From NCBI GenBank assembly GCA_038206135.1, contig JBBRBD010000002.1:2896-66895 (forward strand): a stretch of DNA of 64,000 nt. The letters run 5' to 3'. The translations under genes and the position numbers were made by a program. The first letter of the stretch is position 1. Each line of letters opens with the position of its first letter. Of the stretch, positions 1,637-48,281 are shown piece by piece. The notes under the pieces are model-generated. The model searched no databases. It was not told the DNA's origin and worked only from the letters and a program-made list of their open reading frames with translations. The stretch comes from Patescibacteria group bacterium (GTDB taxonomy: Bacteria; Patescibacteriota; Microgenomatia; UBA8517).

Positions 1637-3589
1637 TTATTTCATTTGCCCCGCAATAGCTGCAACTGCCGCAGGTGCTGTTGACTGATCAGCTGTAAGA
1701 ATTGTTTTGTTTTTGGTATCCATCAAGTCTTGTGGTTTTGTGGTTACAAATTCATATTCTTCAGGCGAGGCAACAACTCTAATTGGTGCGTGATGAGGGC
1801 CTGCAAACAATATTCCTTCTCCCACTCCTGCTGCAAGAAGGAGCTGCTTTTCCCCTTGAGACAAATAAAATGTTTCCGTAATGCGATCGATTGCGGCAGG
1901 GGATTGCTTAAGTAAAAGCCGCATTGCGGAGTTTGTCACAACAGCTTTTCCAATATCTTGTGAAAGGAAGTCTTCTACGTCTTGAGTTATTGTCGTTAAA
2001 CCTAAATAATATTTACGTGCGCGTTTTACAATCGACCACAAGAATGCTGCAGTATCTTCATACCTCATCATGTGCCACGCCTCATCAACAACGAGAAGTC
2101 TTTTTTTAATATCACGGCGTACTTTTGTCCAAATAAAATCAAGAATAATAAACATAGCAATAGGGCGCAATGTATCTTGAATGTCTCGCACTGAAAAAGT
2201 TGTAAACGGGTTTTCTATATTGATGTTTGTCTGTTGATCAAAAATTCCAACATAGCTACCTTTTACATATTTCTCAATTCTTGAAGCCAAATCAATTGCT
2301 TCTGTTGTTTCCATACCGATTAATGCTTTATATAAGTCTTCTATTAACGGTGGCTCTTTATCTTGAGTTTCAGGGTCCATCGTAATTCCTTTTGCTTTGT
2401 ATGCATTAATAAGTGCACGATCGAGGAGTGCTTCCTGGCTCGCATTTAATTCTCCCATTATGACTTTAAAAAGTGAGTGAAGGGTTAGAATTTTTAATCC
2501 AAGTTGGTTTTCACCTTTTTCGTAAATTTGAGACAAATCAAACGGGTTGATTTTCGATGGAGAGCTAAAACTAAATGCAATATATTCACCACCAACTGCT
2601 TCTGTTATTGCTCGATATTCGTTTTCAGGGTCGATAACAATAATTTCTGCACCCATCATAAGAGAGCGGAGAGATTCCAGTTTTACAAAGAAAGATTTCC
2701 CTGCACCGGAAGTTGCAAAAACGGTGAGGTTTGAATTCTCCAAGCTAAAGCGGTCAAAAATAATAAAGGAATCATTTTGTGCATTAATTCCGTACAAAAT
2801 TCCAGTGTCGCTCGAAAGTTCGGCAGTGGTAAATGGAAAAGTAGTCGCAAGAGATGTTGTATCCATGTTTCTTGTTATGGTCAGCACATCTCTCCCAAAT
2901 GGGGCTGATGATAGAAATCCTTTTTGATGATCGAGTGTTGCATGTTTTGAAACAATAAGTACCGAGCCCAATGTTGATTCAACACGCTTCGTAATGCTAT
3001 TTAGCTCTTCTTCGTTTGCAGCTGGAATTGTTATGTAAAAACTGTACTGATAAAAACGCTCAATTCCTTTTATGAGCTGCTCTTGTAAAACCTTTGCATC
3101 CTCAAGTTTTGCTTCTGTTCCAGGATTTACAATTTTTCCACGCTGGATATCAGTCGACATTTCGGCTTCCATTTCAGTAATTTTGCGACGCAATTCATCA
3201 AGAACAGTGCGTCCTTCGACCGGGTATATATAAAACGATATATCGAGACTATGGTCAAAATTAATAACTGGCTCTAGCCAACCAGGCACTACAAACCGTG
3301 GATAACCAGCCACAAACAGAGTTCTAAAATAAACTTGTCCAATTCGAATGCTATCAAAATTTACTTCAATGTCCTGTGGAGCTACAACGTCAGCAATAGT
3401 TAGTGTTTTGTCTTTTTTTAATGCCTCTACCGGGTCACCAAATTTCGGTCGATCGACCTGTTGTTCCATCGTTTTTGTTTGTATGTCAGAAGTATCGACA
3501 ATCGCAGGAGTACTTACTGGATTAACAGTCTGTTTAATTTGATCTGAGGCTACTGGTGTTGGCGCTTGGTTTGGTTGTGTTGGATTCAT
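1637..3589 (-). CDS. virB4: VirB4/TrbE/CagE-family type IV secretion ATPase
   Basis: 650 aa. Walker A motif ATSGAGKSFFVK. Walker B motif RLLVVDEAWHMM. Overall length and layout fit VirB4-like ATPases. Confidence 0.85.
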   Translation of the reverse strand: MNPTQPNQAPTPVASDQIKQTVNPVSTPAIVDTSDIQTKTMEQQVDRPKFGDPVEALKKDKTLTIADVVAPQDIEVNFDSIRIGQVYFRTLFVAGYPRFVVPGWLEPVINFDHSLDISFYIYPVEGRTVLDELRRKITEMEAEMSTDIQRGKIVNPGTEAKLEDAKVLQEQLIKGIERFYQYSFYITIPAANEEELNSITKRVESTLGSVLIVSKHATLDHQKGFLSSAPFGRDVLTITRNMDTTSLATTFPFTTAELSSDTGILYGINAQNDSFIIFDRFSLENSNLTVFATSGAGKSFFVKLESLRSLMMGAEIIVIDPENEYRAITEAVGGEYIAFSFSSPSKINPFDLSQIYEKGENQLGLKILTLHSLFKVIMGELNASQEALLDRALINAYKAKGITMDPETQDKEPPLIEDLYKALIGMETTEAIDLASRIEKYVKGSYVGIFDQQTNINIENPFTTFSVRDIQDTLRPIAMFIILDFIWTKVRRDIKKRLLVVDEAWHMMRYEDTAAFLWSIVKRARKYYLGLTTITQDVEDFLSQDIGKAVVTNSAMRLLLKQSPAAIDRITETFYLSQGEKQLLLAAGVGEGILFAGPHHAPIRVVASPEEYEFVTTKPQDLMDTKNKTILTADQSTAPAAVAAIAGQMK

Positions 3590-4285: not shown

Positions 4286-5383
4286 TTATGCATTAGCCTT
4301 AACTGCCATTGGTGAAATTATCGCCCCGTGTATTTCAAAAGAAAGGGGTGAAAAAGTGAGACCTTCTTTTTCCACATTCATTTGATATGATCCATTTGGA
4401 AGGGGAGTTACTATCATGAAATGGCCCGCTTTGTTTGTTTTGAGAGCTCGAACAGGGCGACCTTGAAAGTCTTTAATTTCCAAAATAGCTCCTTCTACAA
4501 TTTTATTTTGAGCTGTCATTACCTGTCCCACAATTACATTTGGAATTGTAGCAGGTGAAGGGGGAGCTGCATCTGGTGAAAATTGTACGGCAACTGCAGA
4601 TTCTTCAGTTTGAGGATGAAGCGTCTGTTCTATTGGTGCAAGTGTTCCGGTTGCAGACCCTGACTGTTTTACCTCTGTTTGAGCAAATCCTGAGTGTTGT
4701 TGCATTGTAATTGCTGGAGTTGCAGGTGTAGCAACAAAAAGAGTCCCTGCTATTGGTGTAGGAGGTGTATATGCAACAACTGCTGCTGGCTTTGAAGCGT
4801 TTTGAAGTATTTCAGACTGAATAGTAGTAGACACATTCAGTGGTAATGATGTTTCTGGAACTAAAACATTGTTCCCTGGGATTTGGACAACAGGAACTGC
4901 TGTATTTGGTTGTGTAACTGAGGTTGTAGTTTTTTGATGCAAACTAAACATATCAGATATGTTTGCGAGAAAATTATTTTCTTTCGTTTCCATTTTTGTA
5001 ACTGATGCATCTGTTATTTTTGTTTGTCCTGGAATGGTGCTGGGAATCGCGGTTGTTGGAGCGATATTTGCACTCGCAAAATATGAGACATTACTGTCTT
5101 TTTTCCATCGATATTGTGTCGGGCCATAGACTGCTCTGAAAAACGCAGAAATCCATTCCTCTAGTGGACGTTCTTGAAGTGGTAAAAATGCAAAAGCAGC
5201 TCCTGCTACTACAAACAATACAATGAGTGGCCACTTAAAAATCGAAGGAAGGGGAGTGGCATACATAATAAGACCTAATACGGCACCCGCCGCAAGTTGA
5301 AAAAATTGCTTTAAAGTCATGTCACCTACCAATCGAAACTGGTATGAGCTTATTTGTTGAGGAACCGGATGTTGTTCAAACAT
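4286..5383 (-). CDS. Membrane protein with two N-terminal TM helices (VirB3/PrgI-like position), a Thr/Pro/Ala-rich linker, and a C-terminal carboxypeptidase-regulatory-like beta-sandwich domain
   Basis: N-terminal hydrophobic helices (LAAGAVLGLIMYATPLP ; WPLIVLFVVAGAAFAFLPL). C-terminal block VVGQVMTAQNKIVEGAILEIKDFQGRPVRALKTNKAGHFMIVTPLPNGSYQMNVEKEGLTF matches the CarboxypepD_reg/Cna-B-like G-V-D-G-P-GA-V pattern. Position immediately upstream of the virB4 genes. Confidence 0.5.
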   Translation of the reverse strand: MFEQHPVPQQISSYQFRLVGDMTLKQFFQLAAGAVLGLIMYATPLPSIFKWPLIVLFVVAGAAFAFLPLQERPLEEWISAFFRAVYGPTQYRWKKDSNVSYFASANIAPTTAIPSTIPGQTKITDASVTKMETKENNFLANISDMFSLHQKTTTSVTQPNTAVPVVQIPGNNVLVPETSLPLNVSTTIQSEILQNASKPAAVVAYTPPTPIAGTLFVATPATPAITMQQHSGFAQTEVKQSGSATGTLAPIEQTLHPQTEESAVAVQFSPDAAPPSPATIPNVIVGQVMTAQNKIVEGAILEIKDFQGRPVRALKTNKAGHFMIVTPLPNGSYQMNVEKEGLTFSPLSFEIHGAIISPMAVKANA

Positions 5384-6757: not shown

Positions 6758-7312
6758 TTAGTAGGAACAAATTGGTCTACTTAAGAGACTTGTTGAAATC
6801 CACTCATTTTGTCCAATTGATGCCCAGTCACCCGTTGTGTCAGTACCGAAATAGATGAGATTCGTCTGGTTTTGAACGTTACCTACAACGTCGGAATTGG
6901 ATGCAGGTCCGTTTCTAATCCGAGCAGTTTTATTATCAGATACAGTGACCACGACAGTGCAAACTTTTGGTGGAGAAGGTGTATCTGTTTCAAAAACAGG
7001 GATTGGTGTCAGTGTAATTGTCGCTGGAATTTCAGTTTTCGGAATATTGGTCGGTGAAATTGGATTTTTTGTAATTGTTGCCGTTGGAGTAATTATTTGA
7101 TGGATAGTTACCTCGTTTGACCTTAAAAATGCATATGTTGTACCAATTACAAGACCAATTGTTAGTAAAAAGCTGCCTACGATCAAAATTGTTGATCCAA
7201 TACAACCTAGTTGTCGACTTTCTACTTCCTTTTGAATGACATGGTGCCCTGTCTCATCCACATTCTCAAATATGTCATTTTCAGATATTTCAATTAAGCT
7301 TTCCTTTTCCAT
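6758..7312 (-). CDS. Single-pass membrane protein with a C-terminal bacterial SH3 (SH3b)-like domain
   Basis: One TM helix (ILIVGSFLLTIGLVIGTTYAFL). C-terminal TARIRNGPASNSDVVGNVQNQTNLIYFGTDTTGDWASIGQNEWISTSLL resembles the SH3_3 pattern (vRsGPs..s.vig.l..g..v........gdWaki...GWi.s.yL). Confidence 0.45.
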   Translation of the reverse strand: MEKESLIEISENDIFENVDETGHHVIQKEVESRQLGCIGSTILIVGSFLLTIGLVIGTTYAFLRSNEVTIHQIITPTATITKNPISPTNIPKTEIPATITLTPIPVFETDTPSPPKVCTVVVTVSDNKTARIRNGPASNSDVVGNVQNQTNLIYFGTDTTGDWASIGQNEWISTSLLSRPICSY

Positions 7313-7541: not shown

Positions 7542-8372
7542 ATGAAATATCTACTGTTATGGTTTGTAAGCGGATTTCTTATTTACATCATAGTACCTCC
7601 GCTTATTGCGGCGGTACCACAATTTCAACAGGAGTTATTCTCTGTTTTTTCTGGTGTAATTCCTTTGTATACAGATCAAATGAAGGTGTTCTCAGTCGTC
7701 TTGTCTGGCCTTTTTGTTGTATTTCTATCAATGCTTGATAGTTTTTTGAGACCCCGTCCAGTTCTTCAGCCACAACAAAATGCCCGTCCCGCAGCTTTCG
7801 TTCCTGTGAATTCTCAAGTTTTAACATCACAAGGAGACCCAGCAGCGTCTAATCCAAGAACAATCACAAGACGTGTACCTCGAACAAATAGCATGGGAAC
7901 TCCGCATCTAGAGCTTAGATCATTCAAGTTAATAGCACACAATGGTATTAATTTTAGACTATCAAAAGGGGATGATCTTACTTCGAAAGAAAAGTTTCGA
8001 CCAGTTATTGAAATTCGGGTAAATAATCCTGAACTTGTTGGGAAAGTATTGCCACTGCAATTTGATTTGATAAATCCAGACGGCAAGATGATTAACAGTT
8101 TAAGATTAATGCCGATATTAAAGCGAGGCCGGAATATAATTGTTCCTGATGACTCAGAATTTGAGGTTTCTAGCAAAGAAGCTGGTGTGTGGGCAATGAA
8201 ACTACTGTATGGTCAGCACTTGTGGGGAAGGCTCATTTTTACAATGTTAGGGCAAAGCATCTCTAACTTATCGAGCCATATTGGGGCAGATATGGAGATG
8301 GATGGTGAAGCTTTACTTGCGGCAAATGAAGTTACTCGAAATTTCACGTTAGAAGATCTGTTAAGACTTTAA
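7542..8372 (+). CDS. Hypothetical membrane protein (2 N-terminal TM helices plus a ~190-aa soluble domain). First gene of the E2/JAB/E1 operon.
   Basis: 276-aa ORF ending 18 nt before the E2 gene start (same strand). Hydrophobic N-terminus (LLLWFVSGFLIYIIVPPLIAAV ; VFSVVLSGLFVVFLSML). Confidence 0.5.
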   Translation: MKYLLLWFVSGFLIYIIVPPLIAAVPQFQQELFSVFSGVIPLYTDQMKVFSVVLSGLFVVFLSMLDSFLRPRPVLQPQQNARPAAFVPVNSQVLTSQGDPAASNPRTITRRVPRTNSMGTPHLELRSFKLIAHNGINFRLSKGDDLTSKEKFRPVIEIRVNNPELVGKVLPLQFDLINPDGKMINSLRLMPILKRGRNIIVPDDSEFEVSSKEAGVWAMKLLYGQHLWGRLIFTMLGQSISNLSSHIGADMEMDGEALLAANEVTRNFTLEDLLRL

Positions 8373-8389
8373 AACAAGGAGAAGATTCA

Positions 8390-8899
8390 ATGTCAAATTG
8401 GTGGATTGATACGGGAAATAGACCTTCCACACGACTTGCGGTGGAGGTTATTGCGATGAAAAAGGCGTTTGTCGAAAAGGAATTAACTGATTTTAAATAC
8501 GGTGCTAGTTGGGACAGGCCTTTTCAAATAAAAACGCTGCGAAAAAAACTTCATATAGAAGGTTCCGCAGCTCCGTATTGGCAACTTGAGTTTGTTATGC
8601 AGCCTATGCCTGGAGTTGCCCCGCTGTTAAATTCATCTGACGTTTTTAAACTTCAGATTCTGTACACTTCTGACTTTCCTGGTAAAGAACCGCAGGCAAA
8701 TTATCTTTCACCAGATGTCAGCGGTTCACTTCATCTATTTGTTAGTGGAAATAAACTGTGTTTGCACAATCACAGCTCAGCAAATAGTGGGTGGGATCCA
8801 GCTCGTTCAACAGCAGCAACTATAGCTGTCTGGTCCATCCAATGGGCCCGAGCATGGCTAAGCTGGAAACTAACTGGTTCTTGGCCAGAAGTACAATAA
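8390..8899 (+). CDS. Ubiquitin-conjugating enzyme (E2/UBC)-like protein, the prokaryotic E2 of an E2/JAB/E1 operon
   Basis: 169 aa. SDFPGKEPQANYLSPDVSGSLHLFVSGNKLCLHNHSSANSGWDPARSTAATIAVWSIQW parallels the eukaryotic E2 core (YPFKPPKV.F....HPNI...G.ICLdiL...WsPa.ti..vL.si). Candidate catalytic Cys is in NKLCL. Strong RBS AAGGAG upstream of the ATG. Confidence 0.65.
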   Translation: MSNWWIDTGNRPSTRLAVEVIAMKKAFVEKELTDFKYGASWDRPFQIKTLRKKLHIEGSAAPYWQLEFVMQPMPGVAPLLNSSDVFKLQILYTSDFPGKEPQANYLSPDVSGSLHLFVSGNKLCLHNHSSANSGWDPARSTAATIAVWSIQWARAWLSWKLTGSWPEVQ

Positions 8900-8906
8900 A
8901 AAGGAC

Positions 8907-9989
8907 GTGAAAAGAATGAATCAAAAAAGAGATTCAGATCGTACGCCGGGGCTATTAGTTCCCCGGCATATCTTTACCAAAATTGCAGCAGAAGCTGCTT
9001 TACATCCTAAGACAGAAACTGGAGCATCTTTTGTAGGCATTGAAACTCATGATCTTATGGTTATCTTAGGGGTTATTCCTGATGAGGTAAACATCGAACG
9101 TTCTCCTGGATTATTTGTGAATGGGGGTGAGTATCAAGTTGAGCTTTTTCGCTGGTACAAAAAACACTGGGATATGATGAGAAAGGAATCTCGGTTGCTA
9201 GAGAACCAGATAAGCTGGTCTGCAACCGTGAAATTACCCTCGAATTATGTCCCACCAGAACTTGATTTCGATTTGAAATATCTAGGTGATTGGCATAAGC
9301 ATCCAGGATCAATGACGTATTTGAGTTCTCGTGACATACGCACAATTGGGAGTATTTTGTCGGATGTTGAGCAAAACCGTCATCAACTGCTGTCTCCAAT
9401 TGTAACAAAGCTTTCAGTACAGAATGACAGTCCTTTGCAGTCACATGAAGTGTCATTCGATAAGTTTCGTATGACTTGGTATTACTCAGCACGTAACATG
9501 ACAAAACCAGTAGGAATTAAATCATTTCCTATTAGTAACTCAAATCTACCTAGTTTGCCTCCAGTTCCGTGGCATCTCAAAGATCTGAGGAGATTTGATG
9601 ACGAGATCATGTACCTTGGGCTAAAAGGCTACCGTGTATTATCACGAATTCGTGATGTGGACAATGATTCTATTTGCGAGGTTGTTTTTTCGATAGAATC
9701 ACCGTGGCAGCCTAAGAAATATTTGGTAGTCACGAAATGGGATTACCCTGAAAGTGCGCCTCAAATCTACCAATATTCGACGATAGCTGAAGGTGATGAA
9801 GGGACACATATTGATGTCCAATCTTCAACAAAGAATGATTATATTGTAGATCTAATATCTACAGAGGAAGGATATCTTTATGAACCAACGCAACAACCAC
9901 TGGACGAGAATAGAAGACCTAGTTGGCTCGGGTTTCTCAAGATTGCGCCAAGTAAAATTAGGCGTTATTGGCCTCGGTTCACTCGGTAG
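8907..9989 (+). CDS. JAB/MPN (JAMM) metalloprotease, a deubiquitinase-like peptidase of the Ubl-conjugation operon
   Basis: GDWHKHPGSMTYLSSRD is an exact HxHx7Sx2D JAMM zinc motif. Upstream acidic residue is in IAAEAALHP. 360 aa. Confidence 0.7.
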   Translation: MKRMNQKRDSDRTPGLLVPRHIFTKIAAEAALHPKTETGASFVGIETHDLMVILGVIPDEVNIERSPGLFVNGGEYQVELFRWYKKHWDMMRKESRLLENQISWSATVKLPSNYVPPELDFDLKYLGDWHKHPGSMTYLSSRDIRTIGSILSDVEQNRHQLLSPIVTKLSVQNDSPLQSHEVSFDKFRMTWYYSARNMTKPVGIKSFPISNSNLPSLPPVPWHLKDLRRFDDEIMYLGLKGYRVLSRIRDVDNDSICEVVFSIESPWQPKKYLVVTKWDYPESAPQIYQYSTIAEGDEGTHIDVQSSTKNDYIVDLISTEEGYLYEPTQQPLDENRRPSWLGFLKIAPSKIRRYWPRFTR

Positions 9990-10743
9990 TTTAACAACAG
10001 TTCAACTCGCGATGTCTGGGGTTCAAAATTTTGTTTTGATTGACCCAGATATTCTTGAAGATAATAACATCGTTAGACACGCAGCAGATTTACGGTATGT
10101 CGGTATGTCTAAAGTTTTGGCAGTTAAGGACTTAATCCTAAATCGAAACTCTGAAGCAACCGTGAATGCAATTTCTGCAAATGTTATGGATTGCACAGAT
10201 GCTCTACATGATGTCGATTTTGTTCTTGTTGCAGGCTTGGGATCAGAGATTGTTACAACAAATGTAGCATTGAAGATTAGAGAACTGAACAAGATAGCAT
10301 TGTTCAGTGGCATCTATGAAAAAGCCGTTGCAGGAGAGGTCTTTATTGTTCATCCAACAATAGGGCCTTGCTACTCATGTTTTGCTAGTCGTTTGAGATC
10401 ATCAGAACCTCAAATACAGAAGGATGTTGATTACGGACTTCCAATTGACGAACTTAAGGCACAACCTGGACTTGGGTCTCATATTGTGAGAGTATCTTCA
10501 GTTTTTGCAGACTGGACATTACGCCTTGCAATCCATGATTCAAATATTTTGCCTTATTTCCCTGGTAATCTTGTAATATTGAGTAATGAGGCGTATAATT
10601 TTGGCAATGACAAGGAAGGTAATGCTCTCAGATTGCCACCTTCGTCTGCAAAGTGGCTTACAATAAAGAAATTACATAAGTGTAATATTTGTAGCCCACC
10701 AGATTTTCTGTTCGAATCGTTCGAAGAACTTGAAGGAGATTAA
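9880..10743 (+). CDS. E1-like ThiF/MoeB/HesA-family adenylyltransferase (minimal E1)
   Basis: Rossmann motif KLGVIGLGSLGSLTTVQLAMSGVQNFVLIDPDILEDNNIVRH (GxGxxG, then D.D.ve.sNl.Rq). Two CxxC pairs (CYSC ; CNIC). Strong RBS GAGGAAGG 8 nt upstream of the ATG at 9880, which lies inside the 3' end of the JAB ORF (110-nt overlap in a different frame). Confidence 0.7.
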   Translation: MNQRNNHWTRIEDLVGSGFSRLRQVKLGVIGLGSLGSLTTVQLAMSGVQNFVLIDPDILEDNNIVRHAADLRYVGMSKVLAVKDLILNRNSEATVNAISANVMDCTDALHDVDFVLVAGLGSEIVTTNVALKIRELNKIALFSGIYEKAVAGEVFIVHPTIGPCYSCFASRLRSSEPQIQKDVDYGLPIDELKAQPGLGSHIVRVSSVFADWTLRLAIHDSNILPYFPGNLVILSNEAYNFGNDKEGNALRLPPSSAKWLTIKKLHKCNICSPPDFLFESFEELEGD

Positions 10744-10744
10744 A

Positions 10745-10948
10745 ATGGCCACAGTTCCGACTCGTCGTGAAGGTCAATCCGATCCTAATCAGGAAGGTCG
10801 AGATGCTGAAGTTCGTGTGGGTACTACCGTTCCCGACGATCAATTGAGGCAAATGATGGGAAGTTTTGGTGATCTTGATGAAGAAGATGGCAATCCGGAT
10901 AGTCGTCCGGATGAAGTCGCCTTAAATAAAACCCGTACTTGGGGTTAA
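10745..10948 (+). CDS. Small (67 aa) acidic, low-complexity protein ending in Gly (…NKTRTWG). Candidate ubiquitin-like/Pup-like modifier, or a substrate, of the adjacent E1/E2/JAB enzymes.
   Basis: ATG sits 1 nt after the E1 stop codon and has RBS GAAGGAG. Sequence MATVPTRREGQSDPNQEGRDAEVRVGTTVPDDQLRQMMGSFGDLDEEDGNPDSRPDEVALNKTRTWG is predicted disordered and acidic with a C-terminal Gly. A rho-independent terminator follows immediately. Confidence 0.4.
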   Translation: MATVPTRREGQSDPNQEGRDAEVRVGTTVPDDQLRQMMGSFGDLDEEDGNPDSRPDEVALNKTRTWG

Positions 10949-10960
10949 GACATTTTCGTA

Positions 10961-10992
10961 GGGGTGAGGATAATTCCTCACCCTTTTTTGTT
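10961..10992 (+). terminator. Rho-independent terminator closing the E2-JAB-E1-small-protein operon
   Basis: GGGGTGAGGA taat TCCTCACCC followed by TTTTTTGTT. Confidence 0.6.
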
Positions 10993-11053
10993 GCAAACAA
11001 CCCATAATTATGTTAAAATGCTGAACTCCTGGAAAATAGTAGCATAAAGTTAT

Positions 11054-13348
11054 ATGCTGACTGTACATATGCCAGAAGACACCCCAGAAAATATGAAAGA
11101 ATTAGGATTAGAACACGGAGTAGACACTTCAATTCATAGTGATTTCGGTGATTTTGCGCCACCAACATATGAGCATGGTCAAGGTAATAGTCATAACGTA
11201 AATAACGATAATTTAGGCGAAGATAAGCGGTTTGTGTCTGAAGGAGATATGGATATTCTTGCGAAAGCATTACTTCTTTCATCTCGAGAACAAGATGAAT
11301 TATCAGATAATGATAAGGCTTGGATAAATGATCACAAAGGTGCAATTACAAACGCGGTGAGGAACGGAAATTTTGACAGTCATTTTGCCAACCAATTAGG
11401 AATAAGGGGTGAACAGGAAAACACTCCAAATGCTCCTCAAACCACCGTAGATGATGATAGATGGAGTGCTTTTGGTGGAGTTGATTGGGATGCTGCTGCG
11501 AATTCAGGTGAAGCTACTGTACCTCCTGTCAATATTCCTGAAGATCAAAAAAACAACTGGTATCGAGAGTTAGCGGAAGATTGGAGATCTAAACCTCAAA
11601 CGCGAGAATATTGGATTGGAAATCAAGAAAAGGGTGTACAAGACAAACGCTCTATTTTGCAAAACGCTGGAATGACAGATCAAGAAATTAGTGAACTGGT
11701 TAATGACCATACATTTCAAAATAACAGTCGTGCTGGGAAGCCTGTACGTCCAGAAGATATCTCTGAGATAAATGTTTCTAAGCCGGTGAGAGTTGATTCT
11801 CATAATCCAGTTGTAGCAATTGGAACTGAAAGGGTAATACCGACTCCTTTGACTGAGTCCGACCATTCTGGGAACCGTGACTACTTAAAAGGTATCGAAA
11901 GCATGGAATTAAAAGAGCAAATTAAACAGATACGTTTGTTGTGTCAAGACATTCAAGCAACGTATCCAGATCTTCCATTGAGGGAAATCTCTCGGCAAGA
12001 TCCTGAAATATCAGCACAAATTGGAAGACTTGAGCGTGAGATGCGAAAATCAGAATCTCGAACTCCACATTTGGAAATCTTCAAAGAAGCCCTAATGGAG
12101 GCAAAAGTTTTTATTGGATTGCATGATACTGTTGCAAATCTAAATCAAGTAAATTTTAAGGCAGATGAGGTCGAACGTGACATTAAAGCAAAGTATAAAA
12201 CGTTAGAAGACCAGAAACGCGCTCTTTCAGGTGTTGATTTGGCAGCGCTTCTTAAGAATGAAGTTATTTCATTTAGAGGTAGTAACAGAGAAACAGCCAC
12301 CAAGTATCACGAAGGATTGCCCGTAGGGAAAGCACATATGTTATTGCAGGAAGTTTCGACAAAGGGTTTGCCTTTAAATCCTGAAATTCGTTTGGGAGAT
12401 CCTCGTCTAACAGCCGACCAAAAAGCTCTTATTAAAGACTATTTGTACACTGAAATTAAGAAGGTACCAGATATCGAAGATCCCGATTGGACACTTGAGC
12501 TAGCAGAACTTTATGACAAATTTAGTTATGGAACAAGTTTAAGAAATTTAAAAGGATCAGACCCTGTATCAAAAGCAATGTATTTACAACAATTTAGAGA
12601 ATCTACCTTGGAGAAAAAACAGGCAGGAACAACAGGGGATGACCTTGGTCCATACTATACAATAGATGCTGTTCCTTCCGTTGGCTTAACTTCACTAGAT
12701 AGACATATCAGTATCAAAGATAGTGCTGGAAATTCCCACAAACTTGCAAATGCAAGACTTTGGGAAACAGATCCTAGTATTTCAGGCTTAATTCTACCGT
12801 ATGATTTACAACGATATGATCCATATAACCCTGTTCGAAGTGCCTCTACCATTGTTGACCCTACAACACTTAGATGGGAAGATGTTACTTCAACTGACAT
12901 AAAAGATTATTTTACTAAAGCAGTTCCTGCTGGTGTACAGGCAACAGATTGGTTCCTTCGATCCGATTGGTCACTGTCAGAACTTAGAAAAGACAATTTA
13001 GAGAAGTTGCGTTCAAGTTTTAATGTGTTAGACCCAGATGATAATTTGAAATTAGCACCACTGTTAGTCATTGGAATTCTCACTGAATATCAAGCGACAG
13101 TTAACCCAAGTACAGAAAAAGTAGAAGGAACCTTCGGGGATCCGTTTGCAGTGAGAAGATTCCTTGACTTATTGAAGCGTCAACCGAATCCATTTTTAAA
13201 ACCCGAACAAGTGACATACATTGAGTCAGGATTGATGATTGAAGATGAATCGGGAAGAGAACGCAAACTTGACCCAGTAGGATTCGCACACAACATTAGA
13301 CTTCGAAGAACATATACTCGACCACTCCAACCTGTAATCCGTTCATAA
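11054..13348 (+). CDS. Large hypothetical soluble protein (about 750 aa) with no recognisable domain. Possible effector or target linked to the Ubl-conjugation operon or the T4SS.
   Basis: Long uninterrupted ORF with its own promoter-like region after the terminator. No signal peptide or TM segment. Confidence 0.55.
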   Translation: MLTVHMPEDTPENMKELGLEHGVDTSIHSDFGDFAPPTYEHGQGNSHNVNNDNLGEDKRFVSEGDMDILAKALLLSSREQDELSDNDKAWINDHKGAITNAVRNGNFDSHFANQLGIRGEQENTPNAPQTTVDDDRWSAFGGVDWDAAANSGEATVPPVNIPEDQKNNWYRELAEDWRSKPQTREYWIGNQEKGVQDKRSILQNAGMTDQEISELVNDHTFQNNSRAGKPVRPEDISEINVSKPVRVDSHNPVVAIGTERVIPTPLTESDHSGNRDYLKGIESMELKEQIKQIRLLCQDIQATYPDLPLREISRQDPEISAQIGRLEREMRKSESRTPHLEIFKEALMEAKVFIGLHDTVANLNQVNFKADEVERDIKAKYKTLEDQKRALSGVDLAALLKNEVISFRGSNRETATKYHEGLPVGKAHMLLQEVSTKGLPLNPEIRLGDPRLTADQKALIKDYLYTEIKKVPDIEDPDWTLELAELYDKFSYGTSLRNLKGSDPVSKAMYLQQFRESTLEKKQAGTTGDDLGPYYTIDAVPSVGLTSLDRHISIKDSAGNSHKLANARLWETDPSISGLILPYDLQRYDPYNPVRSASTIVDPTTLRWEDVTSTDIKDYFTKAVPAGVQATDWFLRSDWSLSELRKDNLEKLRSSFNVLDPDDNLKLAPLLVIGILTEYQATVNPSTEKVEGTFGDPFAVRRFLDLLKRQPNPFLKPEQVTYIESGLMIEDESGRERKLDPVGFAHNIRLRRTYTRPLQPVIRS

Positions 13349-15112: not shown

Positions 15113-15427
15113 TTATTTTTGATATATCGTAAAGGTTAAAATCGAGTTTATTCCAATAAATCTAGCAATAATAACAAGCAGTAAGAATGACAATGCTAGA
15201 ACAACAATTCCAATTACTGCATATGTTGCCATGTTTCGTGCGGCTTCCGCTCTTTTAGGGTCACTTCCTGCCATAATAAGGTTAACGCCAGCCAAAAGCA
15301 AAATAATAAAGGCTACAATTCCCGCAAGCGGAATAGCTGCGCGCAAAACATTTGCAAATATATCTTCAAATTCTGAAAGAGTGTTTGGGGTACTAGTTAC
15401 AAGTTGTGCAAAAACTAAAGAGAACAT
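15113..15427 (-). CDS. TrbC/VirB2-family T4SS pilin-like protein
   Basis: 104 aa. Leader then two hydrophobic helices separated by AGSDPKRAEAARNMATY. Same architecture as the tandem pilin paralogs at 20.3-22.6 kb. Confidence 0.6.
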   Translation of the reverse strand: MFSLVFAQLVTSTPNTLSEFEDIFANVLRAAIPLAGIVAFIILLLAGVNLIMAGSDPKRAEAARNMATYAVIGIVVLALSFLLLVIIARFIGINSILTFTIYQK

Positions 15428-30195: not shown

Positions 30196-30241
30196 ATAAT
30201 CCTCAAACTTTTTTTTGAAACAAAAGGACTTCAAGATGTTA

Positions 30242-30614
30242 GGTGGAGACGGAGGGAGTCGAACCCTCTTCTGGAGTGAATCTGACAAAATTTCTACAAG
30301 CTTAGAGTATTTTTTTATGTCCATTCATTTTTATCTAATACTCAAGACAAATAAATGTAAGACTTATTTATCTTTCGATTATATTCGCAAAGTCATCGAA
30401 TACATCGGCATCACGACGGGTTTATACCTAAGCTACTTCGCGTGAGGAAAGTAGTAAGGCAGCTTTTAGGCAAACATCGGTACGAAACCGTGGTTGTCAA
30501 AAGCGACAGAATCGTTAGATTTGTCGTTTGTTTTTTGGCCTCTTTTAACTAGAGTTGGCCAATCTAGGCTTGCTGTTTTGTTAAAGTACATTCCATCGAT
30601 ACCAGGTCGTCCCC
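30242..30614 (-). ncRNA. ssrA: tmRNA (SsrA)
   Basis: 5' end GGGGACGACCUGGUAUCGAUGGAAUG. 3' end ...GAGGGUUCGACUCCCUCCGUCUCCACC. These form a 7-bp acceptor stem with the G3:U wobble AlaRS identity pair, a T-arm GGGUUCGACUCCC and discriminator A, with CCA not encoded. The smpB gene is immediately adjacent. The tag reading frame was not resolved by eye. Confidence 0.8.
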
Positions 30615-32518: not shown

Positions 32519-32603
32519 CGGAGGCGGTGAGATTCGAACTCACGAGACTCTTACGAGTCGTGGATTAGCAATCCACTGTACTGGGCCACTATACGACGCC
32601 TCC
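32519..32603 (-). tRNA. tRNA-Ser (anticodon GCT)
   Basis: Manual fold. Acceptor GGAGGCG/CGCCTCC. Anticodon stem GTGGA/TCCAC with loop TTGCTAA. Long variable arm. T-loop TTCGAAT. Confidence 0.75.
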
Positions 32604-32667
32604 AAAACTTGAACTCATCGAATTTTAGCACAACGTTTCGCTCAAGTCTGATATAATCAGGTCTCAC

Positions 32668-32751
32668 GGAGGCGTGTCCGAGCGGTTTATGGAGCTGGTC
32701 TTGAAAACCAGTGGGCGCAAGCCCTCACAGGTTCGAATCCTGTCGCCTCCG
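32668..32751 (+). tRNA. tRNA-Ser (anticodon TGA)
   Basis: Acceptor GGAGGCG/CGCCTCC. Anticodon stem CTGGT/ACCAG with loop CTTGAAA. Long variable arm. T-loop TTCGAAT. Confidence 0.75.
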
Positions 32752-32797
32752 CTAATTGTGTCCTCTTCAAAGTTTGGTATATACTAAATTCATAGAT

Positions 32798-33301
32798 ATG
32801 GCTCCCAAACCTCCCATCCAGCCAGAAATAGAAAAGGTATTATTGTCTTGGACTGCAGCCTCACGTCCATTTAAAAGACGATCTCGCGAGTTTTATATCA
32901 CACTTATTTCTGTTGTAGGTCTTATTGGCGCAATTCTATTTTTAATTGAGGGGGCGATGCCTGCTATATTATTAGGAACTCTCGTGTTTTTGTTTTATGT
33001 ATTAAGTACCGTTGCTCCAGACCAAGTAGAATATAAAATTACGACCTTTGGTATTCGTTTTGCTGAACGATTAACGGAATGGGAAAAGATTGGAAGATTT
33101 TGGTTTGTAAATCGATTGGGAAGTGATTTATTAGTACTTGAGGTTCATGTCCTTCCAGGAAGACTAGAGCTTGTAGCACCAAAAGAAGAACATTCAAAGA
33201 TTGAAGAAACTCTAATGAAATACTTGATCAAAGAAGAAGTTCCACCTGGAGTTTTCGACAAAGCAGCACAATGGGCTAGCAAAAAGCTTCCACAGAGCTA
33301 A
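32798..33301 (+). CDS. Hypothetical membrane protein (about 167 aa, two TM helices)
   Basis: ORF with the internal ATG at 32798 chosen, because the 32756 start would overlap tRNA-Ser. Confidence 0.45.
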   Translation: MAPKPPIQPEIEKVLLSWTAASRPFKRRSREFYITLISVVGLIGAILFLIEGAMPAILLGTLVFLFYVLSTVAPDQVEYKITTFGIRFAERLTEWEKIGRFWFVNRLGSDLLVLEVHVLPGRLELVAPKEEHSKIEETLMKYLIKEEVPPGVFDKAAQWASKKLPQS

Positions 33302-33354
33302 TATTGTATAATACTTCAGCTCGAAAGTTCCTTGTATTAATCTTTTATTTTCCT

Positions 33355-33426
33355 GTACTCATAGCTCAATGGATAGAGTAGCGGCTTGCGGAGCCGTCGA
33401 TCCCAGTTCGAATCTGGGTGGGTACA
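33355..33426 (+). tRNA. tRNA-Arg-like with apparent anticodon GCG (G34 rather than the usual A34 of tRNA-Arg ACG)
   Basis: Manual fold. Acceptor GTACTCA/TGGGTAC. D stem GCTC/GAGT. Anticodon stem GCGGC/GCCGT with loop TTGCGGA. T-arm CCCAG TTCGAAT CTGGG. Body resembles the tRNA-Arg(CCG) at 37913. Confidence 0.55.
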
Positions 33427-33433
33427 CAAGTAG

Positions 33434-33516
33434 GGTGGGTTCGCATAGCGGCCAATTGCACCGGTTTCGAAAACCGGAGGGGTAACCCTTCACAGGTTCA
33501 AATCCTGTACCCACCG
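33434..33516 (+). tRNA. tRNA-Ser (anticodon CGA)
   Basis: Acceptor GGTGGGT/ACCCACC. Anticodon stem CCGGT/ACCGG with loop TTCGAAA. Long variable arm. T-loop TTCAAAT. Confidence 0.75.
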
Positions 33517-33548
33517 CAAGGCGCGTGAAACCTGAAGTTAAAGTATAA

Positions 33549-33636
33549 GGAGAGGTCGCATAGTGGCCTAGTGCAGCGGTTTACTAAACCGCCATATCGC
33601 AAGATATCGAGGGTTCGAATCCCTCCCTCTCCGCCA
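33549..33636 (+). tRNA. Class II (long variable arm) tRNA with apparent anticodon ACT (A34) and encoded CCA. A Ser-type body with an unusual anticodon.
   Basis: Acceptor GGAGAGG/CCTCTCC plus G plus CCA. D stem GCA/TGC (3 bp, Ser-like). Anticodon stem GCGGT/ACCGC with loop TTACTAA. 17-nt variable arm. T-arm GAGGG TTCGAAT CCCTC. Confidence 0.5.
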
Positions 33637-47057: not shown

Positions 47058-48281
47058 ATGAACATATATTTTACCAAGAAGTCTATAGAAGACCAGGACT
47101 ACGAATTTGTAGAGCGAAAAGGGATAGGACATCCAGATACTCTTTCTGACGCCTTGGCTGAAAAATTGTCTGTTAGATATTCGAACTATACTTTAGAAAA
47201 ATACGGAGCAGTACTACATCATAATTTCGATAAAGTCGGGCTCTTAGGAGGTGCTTCATACGTTACCTTTGGGGAAGGGCATTTAATTAAACCAATTAGA
47301 GTTCTTATCAATGGTCGTGCTTCAACCAGATTTGGTGACGAAGAAATTCCTGTTAAAGACATGTTAATTTCATGGACTAAAGATTTTTTGAAATTAAAGT
47401 TTCCGATGATAGACACAAATAAAGATTTGGAGTTTCATTATAACTTAAGCAATCAGAGCAGCCCCGGTAAGACTGAGGAATTTGAATCGACAAATGCACC
47501 AAGAAAACATTGGTTTGAACCTCGCAAGTTGGAGGATTTGCCCGAATTAAAAAAGCTAGTCTCAAATGATACATCCTTGGGAGTCGGTTATGCCCCATAT
47601 AGCATATTAGAGCAACTTATCTTAGATATTGAAAACACGCTTAATTCAGAGAATTTCAAAAAAGATAATCCTTGGATTGGATCAGATATTAAGATAATGG
47701 GCTTTAGAAATCTTGATAGTTTTGGAATTACGATGTGTATTCCTCAAATAGCGAATCATGTAAAGTCTGCGGAAGAATATAAAAAGAACATGACAAAAGC
47801 GCATGAAACTATTATGCAAATTGCTGAAAAATTAGGAGTAAATAAATTAGAGCTTAACTTTAACACCAGAGACAATTTCTTAACAATGGAATTATATTTA
47901 ACTGCAATTGGTTCATCTATAGAAAGTGGTGACGAAGGCCTCGTTGGACGAGGAAATAGAATAAATGGTGTGATATCTCCAACACGACCAATGAGTATGG
48001 AGGGGGCATGTGGGAAAAACCCTGTTTACCATATCGGGAAGGTATATTATGTCGCGGCGAATGAAATAAGTAAAAAAATTTATCAGAAGTTTAATGTTCC
48101 TTGTGAAGTAGCGTTGATAAGCCAAAGTGGTAGGGATTTGCTTGATCCGTGGGCAATTTTTATTACATTGCCAGAGAATGTAAAAGATACAGAAGAGATT
48201 AAGGAATTAGTAGAAAAAGAAGTTAGTTCAATCCCTAATATTACGAATCTTTTGTTAAAAGAGAAAATTCAATTATTTTAA
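47058..48281 (+). CDS. S-adenosylmethionine synthetase, archaeal-type (MAT)
   Basis: 407 aa. VERKGIGHPDTLSDALAE, VLHHNFDKVGLLGG and LINGRAS closely parallel the Methanocaldococcus-type MAT blocks (VERKGLGHPDSICDGIAE / ILHHNTDQVELVGG / LLSGRAT). Not the bacterial MetK GHPDK pattern. Confidence 0.8.
   Translation: MNIYFTKKSIEDQDYEFVERKGIGHPDTLSDALAEKLSVRYSNYTLEKYGAVLHHNFDKVGLLGGASYVTFGEGHLIKPIRVLINGRASTRFGDEEIPVKDMLISWTKDFLKLKFPMIDTNKDLEFHYNLSNQSSPGKTEEFESTNAPRKHWFEPRKLEDLPELKKLVSNDTSLGVGYAPYSILEQLILDIENTLNSENFKKDNPWIGSDIKIMGFRNLDSFGITMCIPQIANHVKSAEEYKKNMTKAHETIMQIAEKLGVNKLELNFNTRDNFLTMELYLTAIGSSIESGDEGLVGRGNRINGVISPTRPMSMEGACGKNPVYHIGKVYYVAANEISKKIYQKFNVPCEVALISQSGRDLLDPWAIFITLPENVKDTEEIKELVEKEVSSIPNITNLLLKEKIQLF

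Follow-up and report, generated by a model that had tools for sequence, protein, structure and literature searches.

A five-gene E2-JAB-E1 operon with a small, predicted disordered candidate modifier in a type IV secretion-like locus of a Patescibacteria group bacterium

To our knowledge, the characterized E1/E2 cascades (eukaryotic, archaeal, Bil and Bub) all use a beta-grasp modifier, and the lone exception is CBASS, in which the "modifier" is an enzyme. The known bacterial operon families that combine E1, E2 and JAB proteins are 6a (MBL), 6b (CBASS), 6c/6d (Bil) and 6e (Bub) (PMC1779556; 10.1101/2024.11.21.623966). Bil operons encode BilA, a beta-grasp ubiquitin-like protein (Ubl), and a multi-domain IAD-AAD-CYS E1, and Bub operons encode a DUF6527 protease and a Ser-type E2 (10.1101/2024.11.21.623953). 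The Bub E1 has no Cys in its crossover loop, where an invariant Tyr forms an oxyester (10.1101/2024.11.21.623953). Cap2-type E1/E2 proteins conjugate the C-terminal tail of the CD-NTase, which is not a Ubl (10.1101/2024.11.21.623966). Here, a five-gene E2-JAB-E1 operon is described from a 64,000-nucleotide (nt) stretch, called the window, of a Patescibacteria group bacterium (assembly GCA_038206135.1, contig JBBRBD010000002.1, positions 2,896 to 66,895 of the forward strand). With slightly better than even confidence, we read this operon as a ubiquitination-like conjugation system whose modifier would be a 67-amino-acid (aa), largely disordered acidic protein and not a beta-grasp Ubl.

Five genes running from position 7542 to 10948, which encode a transmembrane (TM) protein, an E2, a JAB/JAMM metallopeptidase, an E1 and a small protein, form one operon as judged from translational coupling and a terminator (Table 1). 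The TM-protein gene ends 17 nt before the E2 gene. The small open reading frame (ORF) starts 2 nt past the E1 stop codon, at the ATG at 10745, and an AAGGAG Shine-Dalgarno sequence lies 6 nt upstream of it, within the 3' end of the E1 gene. The operon ends at a terminator-like hairpin 12 nt after the small-ORF stop. A promoter-like site with an extended -10 follows at 10991-11019, ahead of the gene for a 764-aa protein. The last 110 nt of the JAB ORF (9880-9989) double as the start of the E1 ORF, read in a different frame; in most relatives, JAB stop and E1 start share 4 nt of the ATGA type. The part of the window JAB tail encoded in this overlap is not conserved. A gene caller chose an alternative E1 start, 9943, in an independent assembly, and E1 lengths range from 266 to 287 aa. 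The ATG at 9880 is favored because R10 and G16 are invariant in the family.

The preliminary description of this locus had assigned three plus-strand ORFs to E2, JAMM and E1 proteins, and profile searches with Pfam and PADLOC agreed on all three. The motifs it quoted are also all present: SDFPGKEP and HLFVSGNKLCL in the E2, HKHPGSMTYLSSRD in the JAB protein, and GLGSLG with two CxxC pairs (CYSC, 164-167, and CNIC, 268-271) in the E1.

The E2 matched eleven PADLOC models, ten of which are E2 or E1-E2 models (best 2.7e-8), and carries the precomputed Pfam assignment PF26395, E2-CBASS. Its catalytic Cys124 (GNKLCLHN) was invariant in 120 sequences, and the upstream His115, in the HPN-equivalent position, was invariant in 40 sequences. 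A 40-sequence E2 profile matched human UBE2L3 at 1.2e-6 with residues 8-118 aligned. In this alignment DGQLCL of the family fell on KGQVCL of UBE2L3, placing the invariant Cys on the catalytic Cys. With the fold core, the G-x-x-C-L context of the Cys and the upstream His all found, the window E2 is, by sequence, a UBC-superfamily homologue. Only 82 E2 relatives were found among 1.84 billion representatives. In the PDB search with the E2 profile, UBE2L3/UbcH7 (~1e-6) was a stronger match than 8hsb_B (2.4e-3), the sole bacterial CBASS-type E2 chain among the matches listed. The short related contig L089 has one more E2 paralogue (L089:1481-1987), which lies after the TM-protein gene and before the active E2. 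This paralogue is UEV-like and has no catalytic Cys, since TRIDLIT replaces NKLCLHN.

The zinc and active site of the JAB protein consists of E37, H130-K-H132, S140 and D143 in a domain of residues ~15-170. The protein matched PADLOC JAB models at 6.7e-10 and Pfam Prok-JAB at 6.5e-4 with 20 bits, which is below the gathering score of 25. In 135 sequences, E37, H130, S140 and D143 were invariant. At the position of the second zinc ligand, H132, the window and 16 others have His, and 118 of the 135 have Gln (DWHKQPG). The E...H-x-H-x7-S-x2-D site thus identifies the window protein as a member of the JAB/JAMM family. A conserved C-terminal domain of ~190 aa follows (residues ~170-300: LPxLPPxPWHL, T.WDYP...P). 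An E2/RWD-like identity for this domain was considered and not accepted. The hhalign comparison of the JAB and E2 families was weak (25 columns, probability 3.8%, E=0.011), with DYP..P of the JAB protein on the YP..YP..P strand of the E2.

The E1 matched Pfam ThiF at 2.8e-21, with the match beginning at residue 17, and the PADLOC Cap2-type E1-E2 models at 1.2e-22 at best. When a family profile was used, UBA5, ThiF, MccB and MoeB were matched at 1e-19 to 1e-21 and Cap2 at 1e-10. The GxGxxG motif, D55, N63, R66, K78 and both Zn-type CxxC pairs are invariant. The protein is thus best described as a single-domain, minimal homologue of ThiF, MoeB and UBA5. A canonical thioester-forming E1 has a catalytic Cys in its crossover loop or inserted into it, whereas the window E1 has none. 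No conserved Cys was found in the crossover loop, the only conserved Cys residues of the protein are the four of the CxxC pairs, and the position aligned to MoeB C187 and UBA5 C250 is Leu. The crossover-loop residues Tyr185-Gly186 are invariant.

The last gene of the operon encodes the candidate modifier. The window small protein contains 15 D/E and 8 K/R residues, is of low complexity and has a basic C-terminal tail. It ends in ...EVALNKTRTWG-stop (PDEVALNKTRTWG), exactly at the conserved G. The same 67-aa product was called as a gene in an independent assembly. In L001 (JGI Ga0163150_10001600), the one close relative with long context, the corresponding 69-aa ORF ends in ...SLQKQRTWG-TDL (SLQKQRTWGTDL; AEVSLQKQRTWG-TDL-stop), and the window ORF matched this orthologue at 2.2e-5 with phmmer. 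A small ORF of ~85-125 aa stands right after the E1 gene on the same strand in 99-111 loci. In Chloroflexota, the last ~55 residues of the small protein are nearly invariant (RLERLGGEPAPxITPEEFARLQKAGQVHIDxRGRVRTxRRSDAEAGVSL[RK]KRRAWY). SL[RK]KRRAWY is followed by 0-9 residues that are not conserved; in two proteins, the Y itself is the last residue. BilA Ubls likewise have a conserved terminal residue followed by up to nine variable residues, which are trimmed by the JAB protein (PMC10557695). Since the end of the small protein follows the same pattern as processed BilA, it was counted in favor of a modifier role.

Four tail residues (L, K, R and W) are invariant across the three groups, namely the window, L001 and Chloroflexota. 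Among the 1036 ORFs of the window, the small ORF is the one that has L.K.R.W no more than five residues from its stop, where 0.028 occurrences are expected. An hhalign comparison of the window and L001 tail with the Chloroflexota family gave E=8.4e-4 over 13 columns. The family comprises at least 1619 clusters at 90% identity, all named "hypothetical protein" and without a Pfam family. In an AlphaFold2 model of a Chloroflexota member (84-sequence alignment, mean predicted local distance difference test (pLDDT) 68.5), the N-terminus is disordered, and two short helices, one hairpin and a tail helix are seen. When this model was compared with the PDB by Foldseek, nothing was found at E<0.7, and no ubiquitin-like chain was among the 50 best matches listed. 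The window protein lacks the hairpin segment of the Chloroflexota form. The small protein is therefore predicted, at the level of a model, to be largely disordered and not a beta-grasp protein. The remark in the preliminary description that a recognizable beta-grasp Ubl is missing holds, since no operon protein matched a Ubl family. Its picture of a system without a modifier has to be revised: the conserved small ORF after the E1 gene was overlooked, though the interval described ended at 10948, the stop of this very ORF. Among the operon products, we propose the small protein as the best modifier candidate from its sequence.

We infer every chemical step, the small protein as substrate, and the targets. 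The tail ...L-x-K-x-R-x-W-G would bind the adenylation site of a homodimeric E1, where its terminal carboxylate would be adenylated. The acyl group would then pass to Cys124 of the E2. Since the E1 has no crossover-loop Cys, this transfer would be direct or would go through an oxyester on Tyr185, as in the Bub E1. The thioester between E2 and tag would be aminolyzed onto a lysine or other amine of the target, and the JAMM peptidase would remove the tag. In relatives with 1-9 extra residues, the peptidase would first trim the precursor. The two-helix TM protein could position or present the reaction on the cytoplasmic side of the membrane.

Several observations weigh against this scheme. A hidden Markov model (HMM) built from Chloroflexota sequences only did not retrieve the window small ORF and found the L001 protein only at E=0.06. 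For this reason, full-length homology is not claimed; what connects the window ORF with the Chloroflexota family is position, size and the 13-residue tail, a link at the motif level. The tail ends in Gly in the window type and in Tyr in the main family, and Tyr is unusual for adenylation by an E1. No conserved Lys was seen in the 23-sequence alignment of the TM protein. The AlphaFold2 model of the JAB protein (5 sequences) had a pLDDT of only 37, too low for a fold assignment of its C-terminal domain. Lastly, adenylating enzymes of the ThiF/MoeB type have, besides a Rossmann GxGxxG, an Arg finger and a Lys, an Mg2+-binding Asp in a ...VD.. motif. This canonical Asp, which is essential in MoeB and ThiF, is replaced by Gly in the E1 of the window and in that of L001 (GLGSE; L001:7935-8786); it is D in 104 of 106 sequences (GVDGE). 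Because of this loss, adenylation by the window-type E1 may be impaired, or the enzyme may use the invariant Glu123.

The missing Asp could also mean that the operon is a decaying or non-catalytic remnant in which adenylation has been lost. The substitution occurs in the window and L001 only, the 110-nt overlap of the JAB and E1 ORFs is unusual, and the operon is dispensable in close relatives. However, the two E1s that share the substitution are only 57% identical, and both genomes have kept all other catalytic residues of E1, E2 and JAB as well as the tail motif, which indicates purifying selection. None of the ORFs is disrupted, their starts are coupled and a terminator is present. E1 residue 121 (G or D) also covaries with the terminal residue of the small protein (G or Y), suggesting adaptation over decay. 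As a sign of contact between the two proteins, this covariation is weak evidence, because it reflects one evolutionary event. We regard a remnant as the least probable of the explanations weighed here.

The operon was next compared with the described families. Its enzymes are common to all of them and, in sequence, are closest to CBASS Cap2/Cap3, which gave the closest library matches for all three window enzymes. In CBASS, as in the proposed system, the conjugated moiety is no beta-grasp Ubl but the flexible C-terminus of another protein, and a JAB protein reverses the reaction. The window operon differs in that it has no CD-NTase, effector or nucleotide signaling, in that E2 and E1 are separate genes, and in that the E1 has no catalytic crossover Cys. 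The proposed conjugated moiety is a dedicated small protein of 67-100 aa. PADLOC found no CD-NTase or effector among the neighbors; the lone Cyclase match was weak (0.028) and fell on the E2.

With BilABCD (Type I/II Bil; types 6d/6c of Iyer 2006), the operon family shares separate E2, JAB and E1 genes, a Cys E2, and, in the candidate modifier, the pattern of a conserved residue near the C-terminus with at most nine variable residues behind it, which the JAB protein trims in Bil. BilA, however, consists of 1-3 beta-grasp domains, whereas the small protein of the window family is predicted to have another fold. BilD is a large IAD-AAD-CYS protein with a catalytic Cys domain, and the window E1 has one adenylation domain. 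No Bil structures were among the PDB profile matches listed for the E2 and E1 profiles. The Bub E1, like that of the window, is a minimal UBA5/ThiF-like protein without a crossover Cys and with an invariant Tyr (Y370 in Bub, Y185 in the window). JAB and E1 are fused in one ORF, in the BubCD domain order, in two Chloroflexota loci (L068:7872-10097 and L071:788-2860). In contrast, the Bub E2 uses Ser to form an oxyester, while the E2 Cys is invariant in the window family. Bub also has a DUF6527 serine protease and beta-grasp Ubls that are often fused to the E2; none of these is in the window operon, and no match to DUF6527 was found in the operon or its flanks.

The operon had been called Bil/Bub-like, and this assignment did not stand: the E1 is a single domain of ~280 aa without a crossover Cys, the E2 has a Cys, and neither a Ubl nor DUF6527 is present. 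Because a CD-NTase or effector, a beta-grasp Ubl, an IAD-AAD-CYS E1, DUF6527 and a Ser-type E2 are all missing, the gene content places the operon family outside Bil, Bub and CBASS. It is apparently undescribed and new relative to the known E1/E2/JAB operons. Full-text literature searches, with subscription journals outside their coverage, found no description of the operon family or the small protein.

The closeness to CBASS raises the question of defense. The operon could be an anti-phage or anti-mobile-element module of the Bil or CBASS kind, in which a host factor is conjugated to an invader protein, or an effector is primed, and the small protein is the conjugated moiety. The sole library families matched were CBASS-derived (PADLOC E2, JAB and E1-E2; NCBIfam 6A-MBL cap2_3), and all the characterized bacterial E1/E2/JAB operons are defense systems (10.1101/2024.11.21.623966). 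In the lineage of the window, the distribution is patchy, since the operon is found in the window and L001 and is absent from the same slot in the closer relatives L169 and L170. Its proteins also diverge faster (44-57% identity) than VirB4 (86%). On the other hand, the operon contains no CD-NTase, effector, MBL or DUF6527 gene, and its wider distribution, described below, is unlike that of sporadic defense islands. For these reasons, we think a defense role unlikely.

L001 encodes, in order, a 262-aa TM protein, E2, JAB, ThiF and the 69-aa ORF, then PrgI, a TraC-like gene and VirB4. Its JAB protein is 48-49% identical to that of the window. Two short contigs, L007 and L089, have the same operon start. 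A scan of one genome per GTDB species gave 255 more distant JAB relatives with 26-31% identity, almost all from Chloroflexota (Anaerolineae, Aggregatilineales, Phototrophicaceae) and a few from Pleurocapsa. A metagenome scan added 80 loci, none of them close. The gene order E2-JAB-E1 was collinear in all 140 non-redundant loci, nearly all of which are Chloroflexota. There, the operon is chromosomal and not in a defense island, and it is syntenic with an ABC transporter, a PfkB kinase, HSP20 and a histidine kinase across hundreds of species. A scan of 2.9 million viral contigs gave no relative, and the operon proteins had no PHROG match except generic ThiF; together, these results ruled out a phage origin. 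The borders of the operon contained no flanking direct repeats and no mobility genes. The synteny, the viral scan and the lack of repeats and mobility genes argue against defense. In some Chloroflexota loci, an extra gene lies between JAB and E1, for example a 174-aa protein with a hydrophobic segment (L003:11053-11577; also in L014, L018, L030 and L036).

Many Chloroflexota operons are extended by a PCMT-type methyltransferase (65 of 140 loci; for example, 404 aa at L003:12857-14071) and a NUDIX hydrolase (58 of 140; for example, L062:5582-6223). The models closest to the methyltransferase are associated with ribosomally synthesized and post-translationally modified peptides (RiPPs), namely TIGR04364 of the FxLD system (2e-72, below the cut-off) and the ATP-grasp peptide maturase TIGR04188. 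The conserved Asp of the small protein (RSDAEAG) could be a methylation site.

Another possible explanation is RiPP-like maturation, in which the small protein is a precursor whose C-terminus is adenylated by an MccB/PaaA-like E1 and then chemically modified or cyclized, with the JAB protein as leader or follower peptidase. The methyltransferase gene follows the small gene in Chloroflexota, the substrate would be a short ribosomal peptide with a trimmed end, and the best single-sequence PDB matches of the E1 were MccB (4e-11, aligned from MccB residue ~112) and PaaA. In the MccB/MccA and PaaA systems, too, the C-terminus of a short ribosomal peptide is the target of an E1-fold enzyme. However, an E2 with invariant Cys and His is kept at every locus and has no role in RiPP chemistry, and the operon pairs it with a JAB protein. 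The E1 lacks the N-terminal peptide clamp of MccB, as the ThiF domain starts at ~17. The conservation is reversed as well, with an invariant C-terminal "core" and a variable N-terminus, whereas RiPPs have a variable core. Exporter and immunity genes are not present, and neither the window nor L001 has the methyltransferase or the NUDIX gene. RiPP-like maturation thus seems quite unlikely, and we place it below defense.

If the small protein is a covalent tag, it has an analogue in Pup of the Pup/PafA/Dop system, which is also a small, disordered, acidic tag with a conserved C-terminal tail. The analogy is functional only, and the enzymology is completely different. Pupylation uses a glutamine-synthetase-like ligase and the side-chain carboxylate of a C-terminal Glu, while the window tail is ...RTWG without a GGQ or GGE end. 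A Pfam scan that covered the operon genes and 18 further large ORFs gave no match to PafA or Dop, and proteasome genes were not seen either. We see a fair-sized chance, though one short of even, that the family adds a third kind of prokaryotic tag to the two already known, beta-grasp Ubls and Pup. Such a short, largely disordered tag would be recognized solely by its invariant tail, attached by E1/E2 enzymes and removed by a JAMM peptidase. It would be a housekeeping system in Chloroflexota, where at least 255 species representatives have it, and a divergent offshoot would have been recruited into the variable T4SS-like (type IV secretion system-like) slot of a small-genome bacterium. If this is true, the ubiquitin fold is dispensable for ubiquitin-type chemistry, and the operon offers a minimal, engineerable tagging system. 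An E1 without a Cys and with an invariant crossover Tyr, acting with a Cys E2, would also be an intermediate between the oxyester cascades of Bub and the canonical thioester cascades. Since the operon is conserved vertically in Chloroflexota and not scattered over defense islands, a physiological, non-immune role is testable.

In the first protein of the operon, hydropathy and the 23-sequence alignment show TM helices at ~1-28 and 46-70, then a Pro/Arg-rich linker that leads to a beta-rich domain, and a conserved C-terminal helix with ...TLEDLLRL. The protein matched no family in Pfam, NCBIfam or PADLOC. In 16 of the 140 non-redundant loci, homologues are found immediately before the E2 gene, often as tandem pairs; these loci include L001, L007 and 13 Chloroflexota loci, and L089, which was added by hand, also carries the protein. 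The TM protein probably localizes the reaction or is a substrate and is, therefore, a candidate anchor, adaptor or target. Its tail, ...SLE[DE]LL, could itself be the E1/E2 substrate, like the CD-NTase in CBASS, which would make the small protein a regulator or irrelevant. The conserved C-terminal motif followed by variable extensions, and the position of the gene immediately upstream of the E2 gene, as for the CD-NTase, are consistent with this. Nevertheless, the TM gene is present in only 16 of 140 loci compared to ~100 for the small ORF, the tail of the small protein is far more conserved, and some extensions past the TM motif are very long, up to ~40 residues. A tail substrate of this kind therefore appears improbable, and the small protein is kept as the candidate modifier.

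The operon lies within a T4SS-like locus with VirB4/TraG, PrgI and pilin genes, as the preliminary description had stated. The slot it occupies is common to the window and L001 and lies between the PrgI side and the side of the large variable protein and a 555-aa TM protein; the segment that holds the operon together with the SH3-TM gene has opposite orientations in the window and in L001. L170 and L169, the closest relatives found, have VirB4 proteins that are 93% and 90% identical to that of the window, compared to 86% for L001, which has the operon. Both contain the pilin, a homologue of the 555-aa TM protein, a 754- or 883-aa protein, PrgI, a TraC-like gene and VirB4. No E2, JAB, E1, small ORF, homologue of the 276-aa TM protein or SH3-TM gene was found in their T4SS clusters. 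Because these relatives have the cluster without the operon, the comparison marks the operon as an accessory insert in a variable slot of the locus. The annotated recurrent neighbor families of the ~250 Chloroflexota relatives included no T4SS genes. The suggestion that the system tags components of the secretion apparatus is not borne out by either result, and a functional tie of the operon to secretion is possible at most.

The SH3-TM protein matched Pfam SH3_3 at 7.4e-6, and its L001 homologue is 32% identical and in the same position. The gene travels with the operon: it lies next to it in both the window and L001, and the operon-free relatives L169 and L170 were not found to have it. The two flanking genes pointed out earlier fared differently: the two-helix TM gene is indeed there and is now counted in the conserved unit, while the 764-aa "orphan" belongs to the T4SS locus and lies behind the terminator. 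The latter protein was ruled out as an operon partner by this position and by its homologue in L170, which has no operon (883 aa, E=5e-21, 29% identity over 224 aa). It is a fast-evolving constituent of the T4SS locus. The proteins in the equivalent position in L169 (754 aa) and L001 (804 aa) have no detectable similarity to it.

Table 1. Coordinates of the operon and other features in the window
Feature	Position	Strand	Remarks
TM protein	7542-8372	+	276 aa, two N-terminal TM helices; operon gene 1
E2 (UBC fold)	8390-8899	+	169 aa; PADLOC E2 models, PF26395
JAB/JAMM metallopeptidase	8907-9989	+	360 aa (database version: ATG 8916, 357 aa)
Minimal ThiF-type E1	9880-10743	+	287 aa; Pfam ThiF
Small acidic ORF	10745-10948	+	67 aa; candidate modifier; last operon gene
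Intrinsic-terminator-like hairpin	10960-10985	+	11-bp stem, 6 GC, then TTTTTTGTTG (T-run)
SH3-TM protein	6758-7312	-	184 aa, TM and SH3_3; divergent from operon
VirB4/TraG P-loop ATPase	1637-3589	-	T4SS-like locus
PrgI	4286-5383	-	T4SS-like locus
T4SS pilin	15113-15427	-	T4SS-like locus
764-aa protein	11054-13348		No family in Pfam, NCBIfam or PHROGs
tmRNA	30241-30614		
tRNA gene cluster	32519-33633		
Archaeal-type S-adenosylmethionine synthetase	47058-48281		PF01941, 2.4e-110

The window is chromosomal. Encoded in it are a tmRNA, eight tRNAs, DnaG, RpoD and an archaeal-type S-adenosylmethionine synthetase. The synthetase, the tmRNA and the tRNA cluster would suit a small-genome bacterium similar to those of the candidate phyla radiation (CPR), as would two further traits: the window is rich in TM and glycosyltransferase genes, and its T4SS genes are of the Gram-positive or CPR type.

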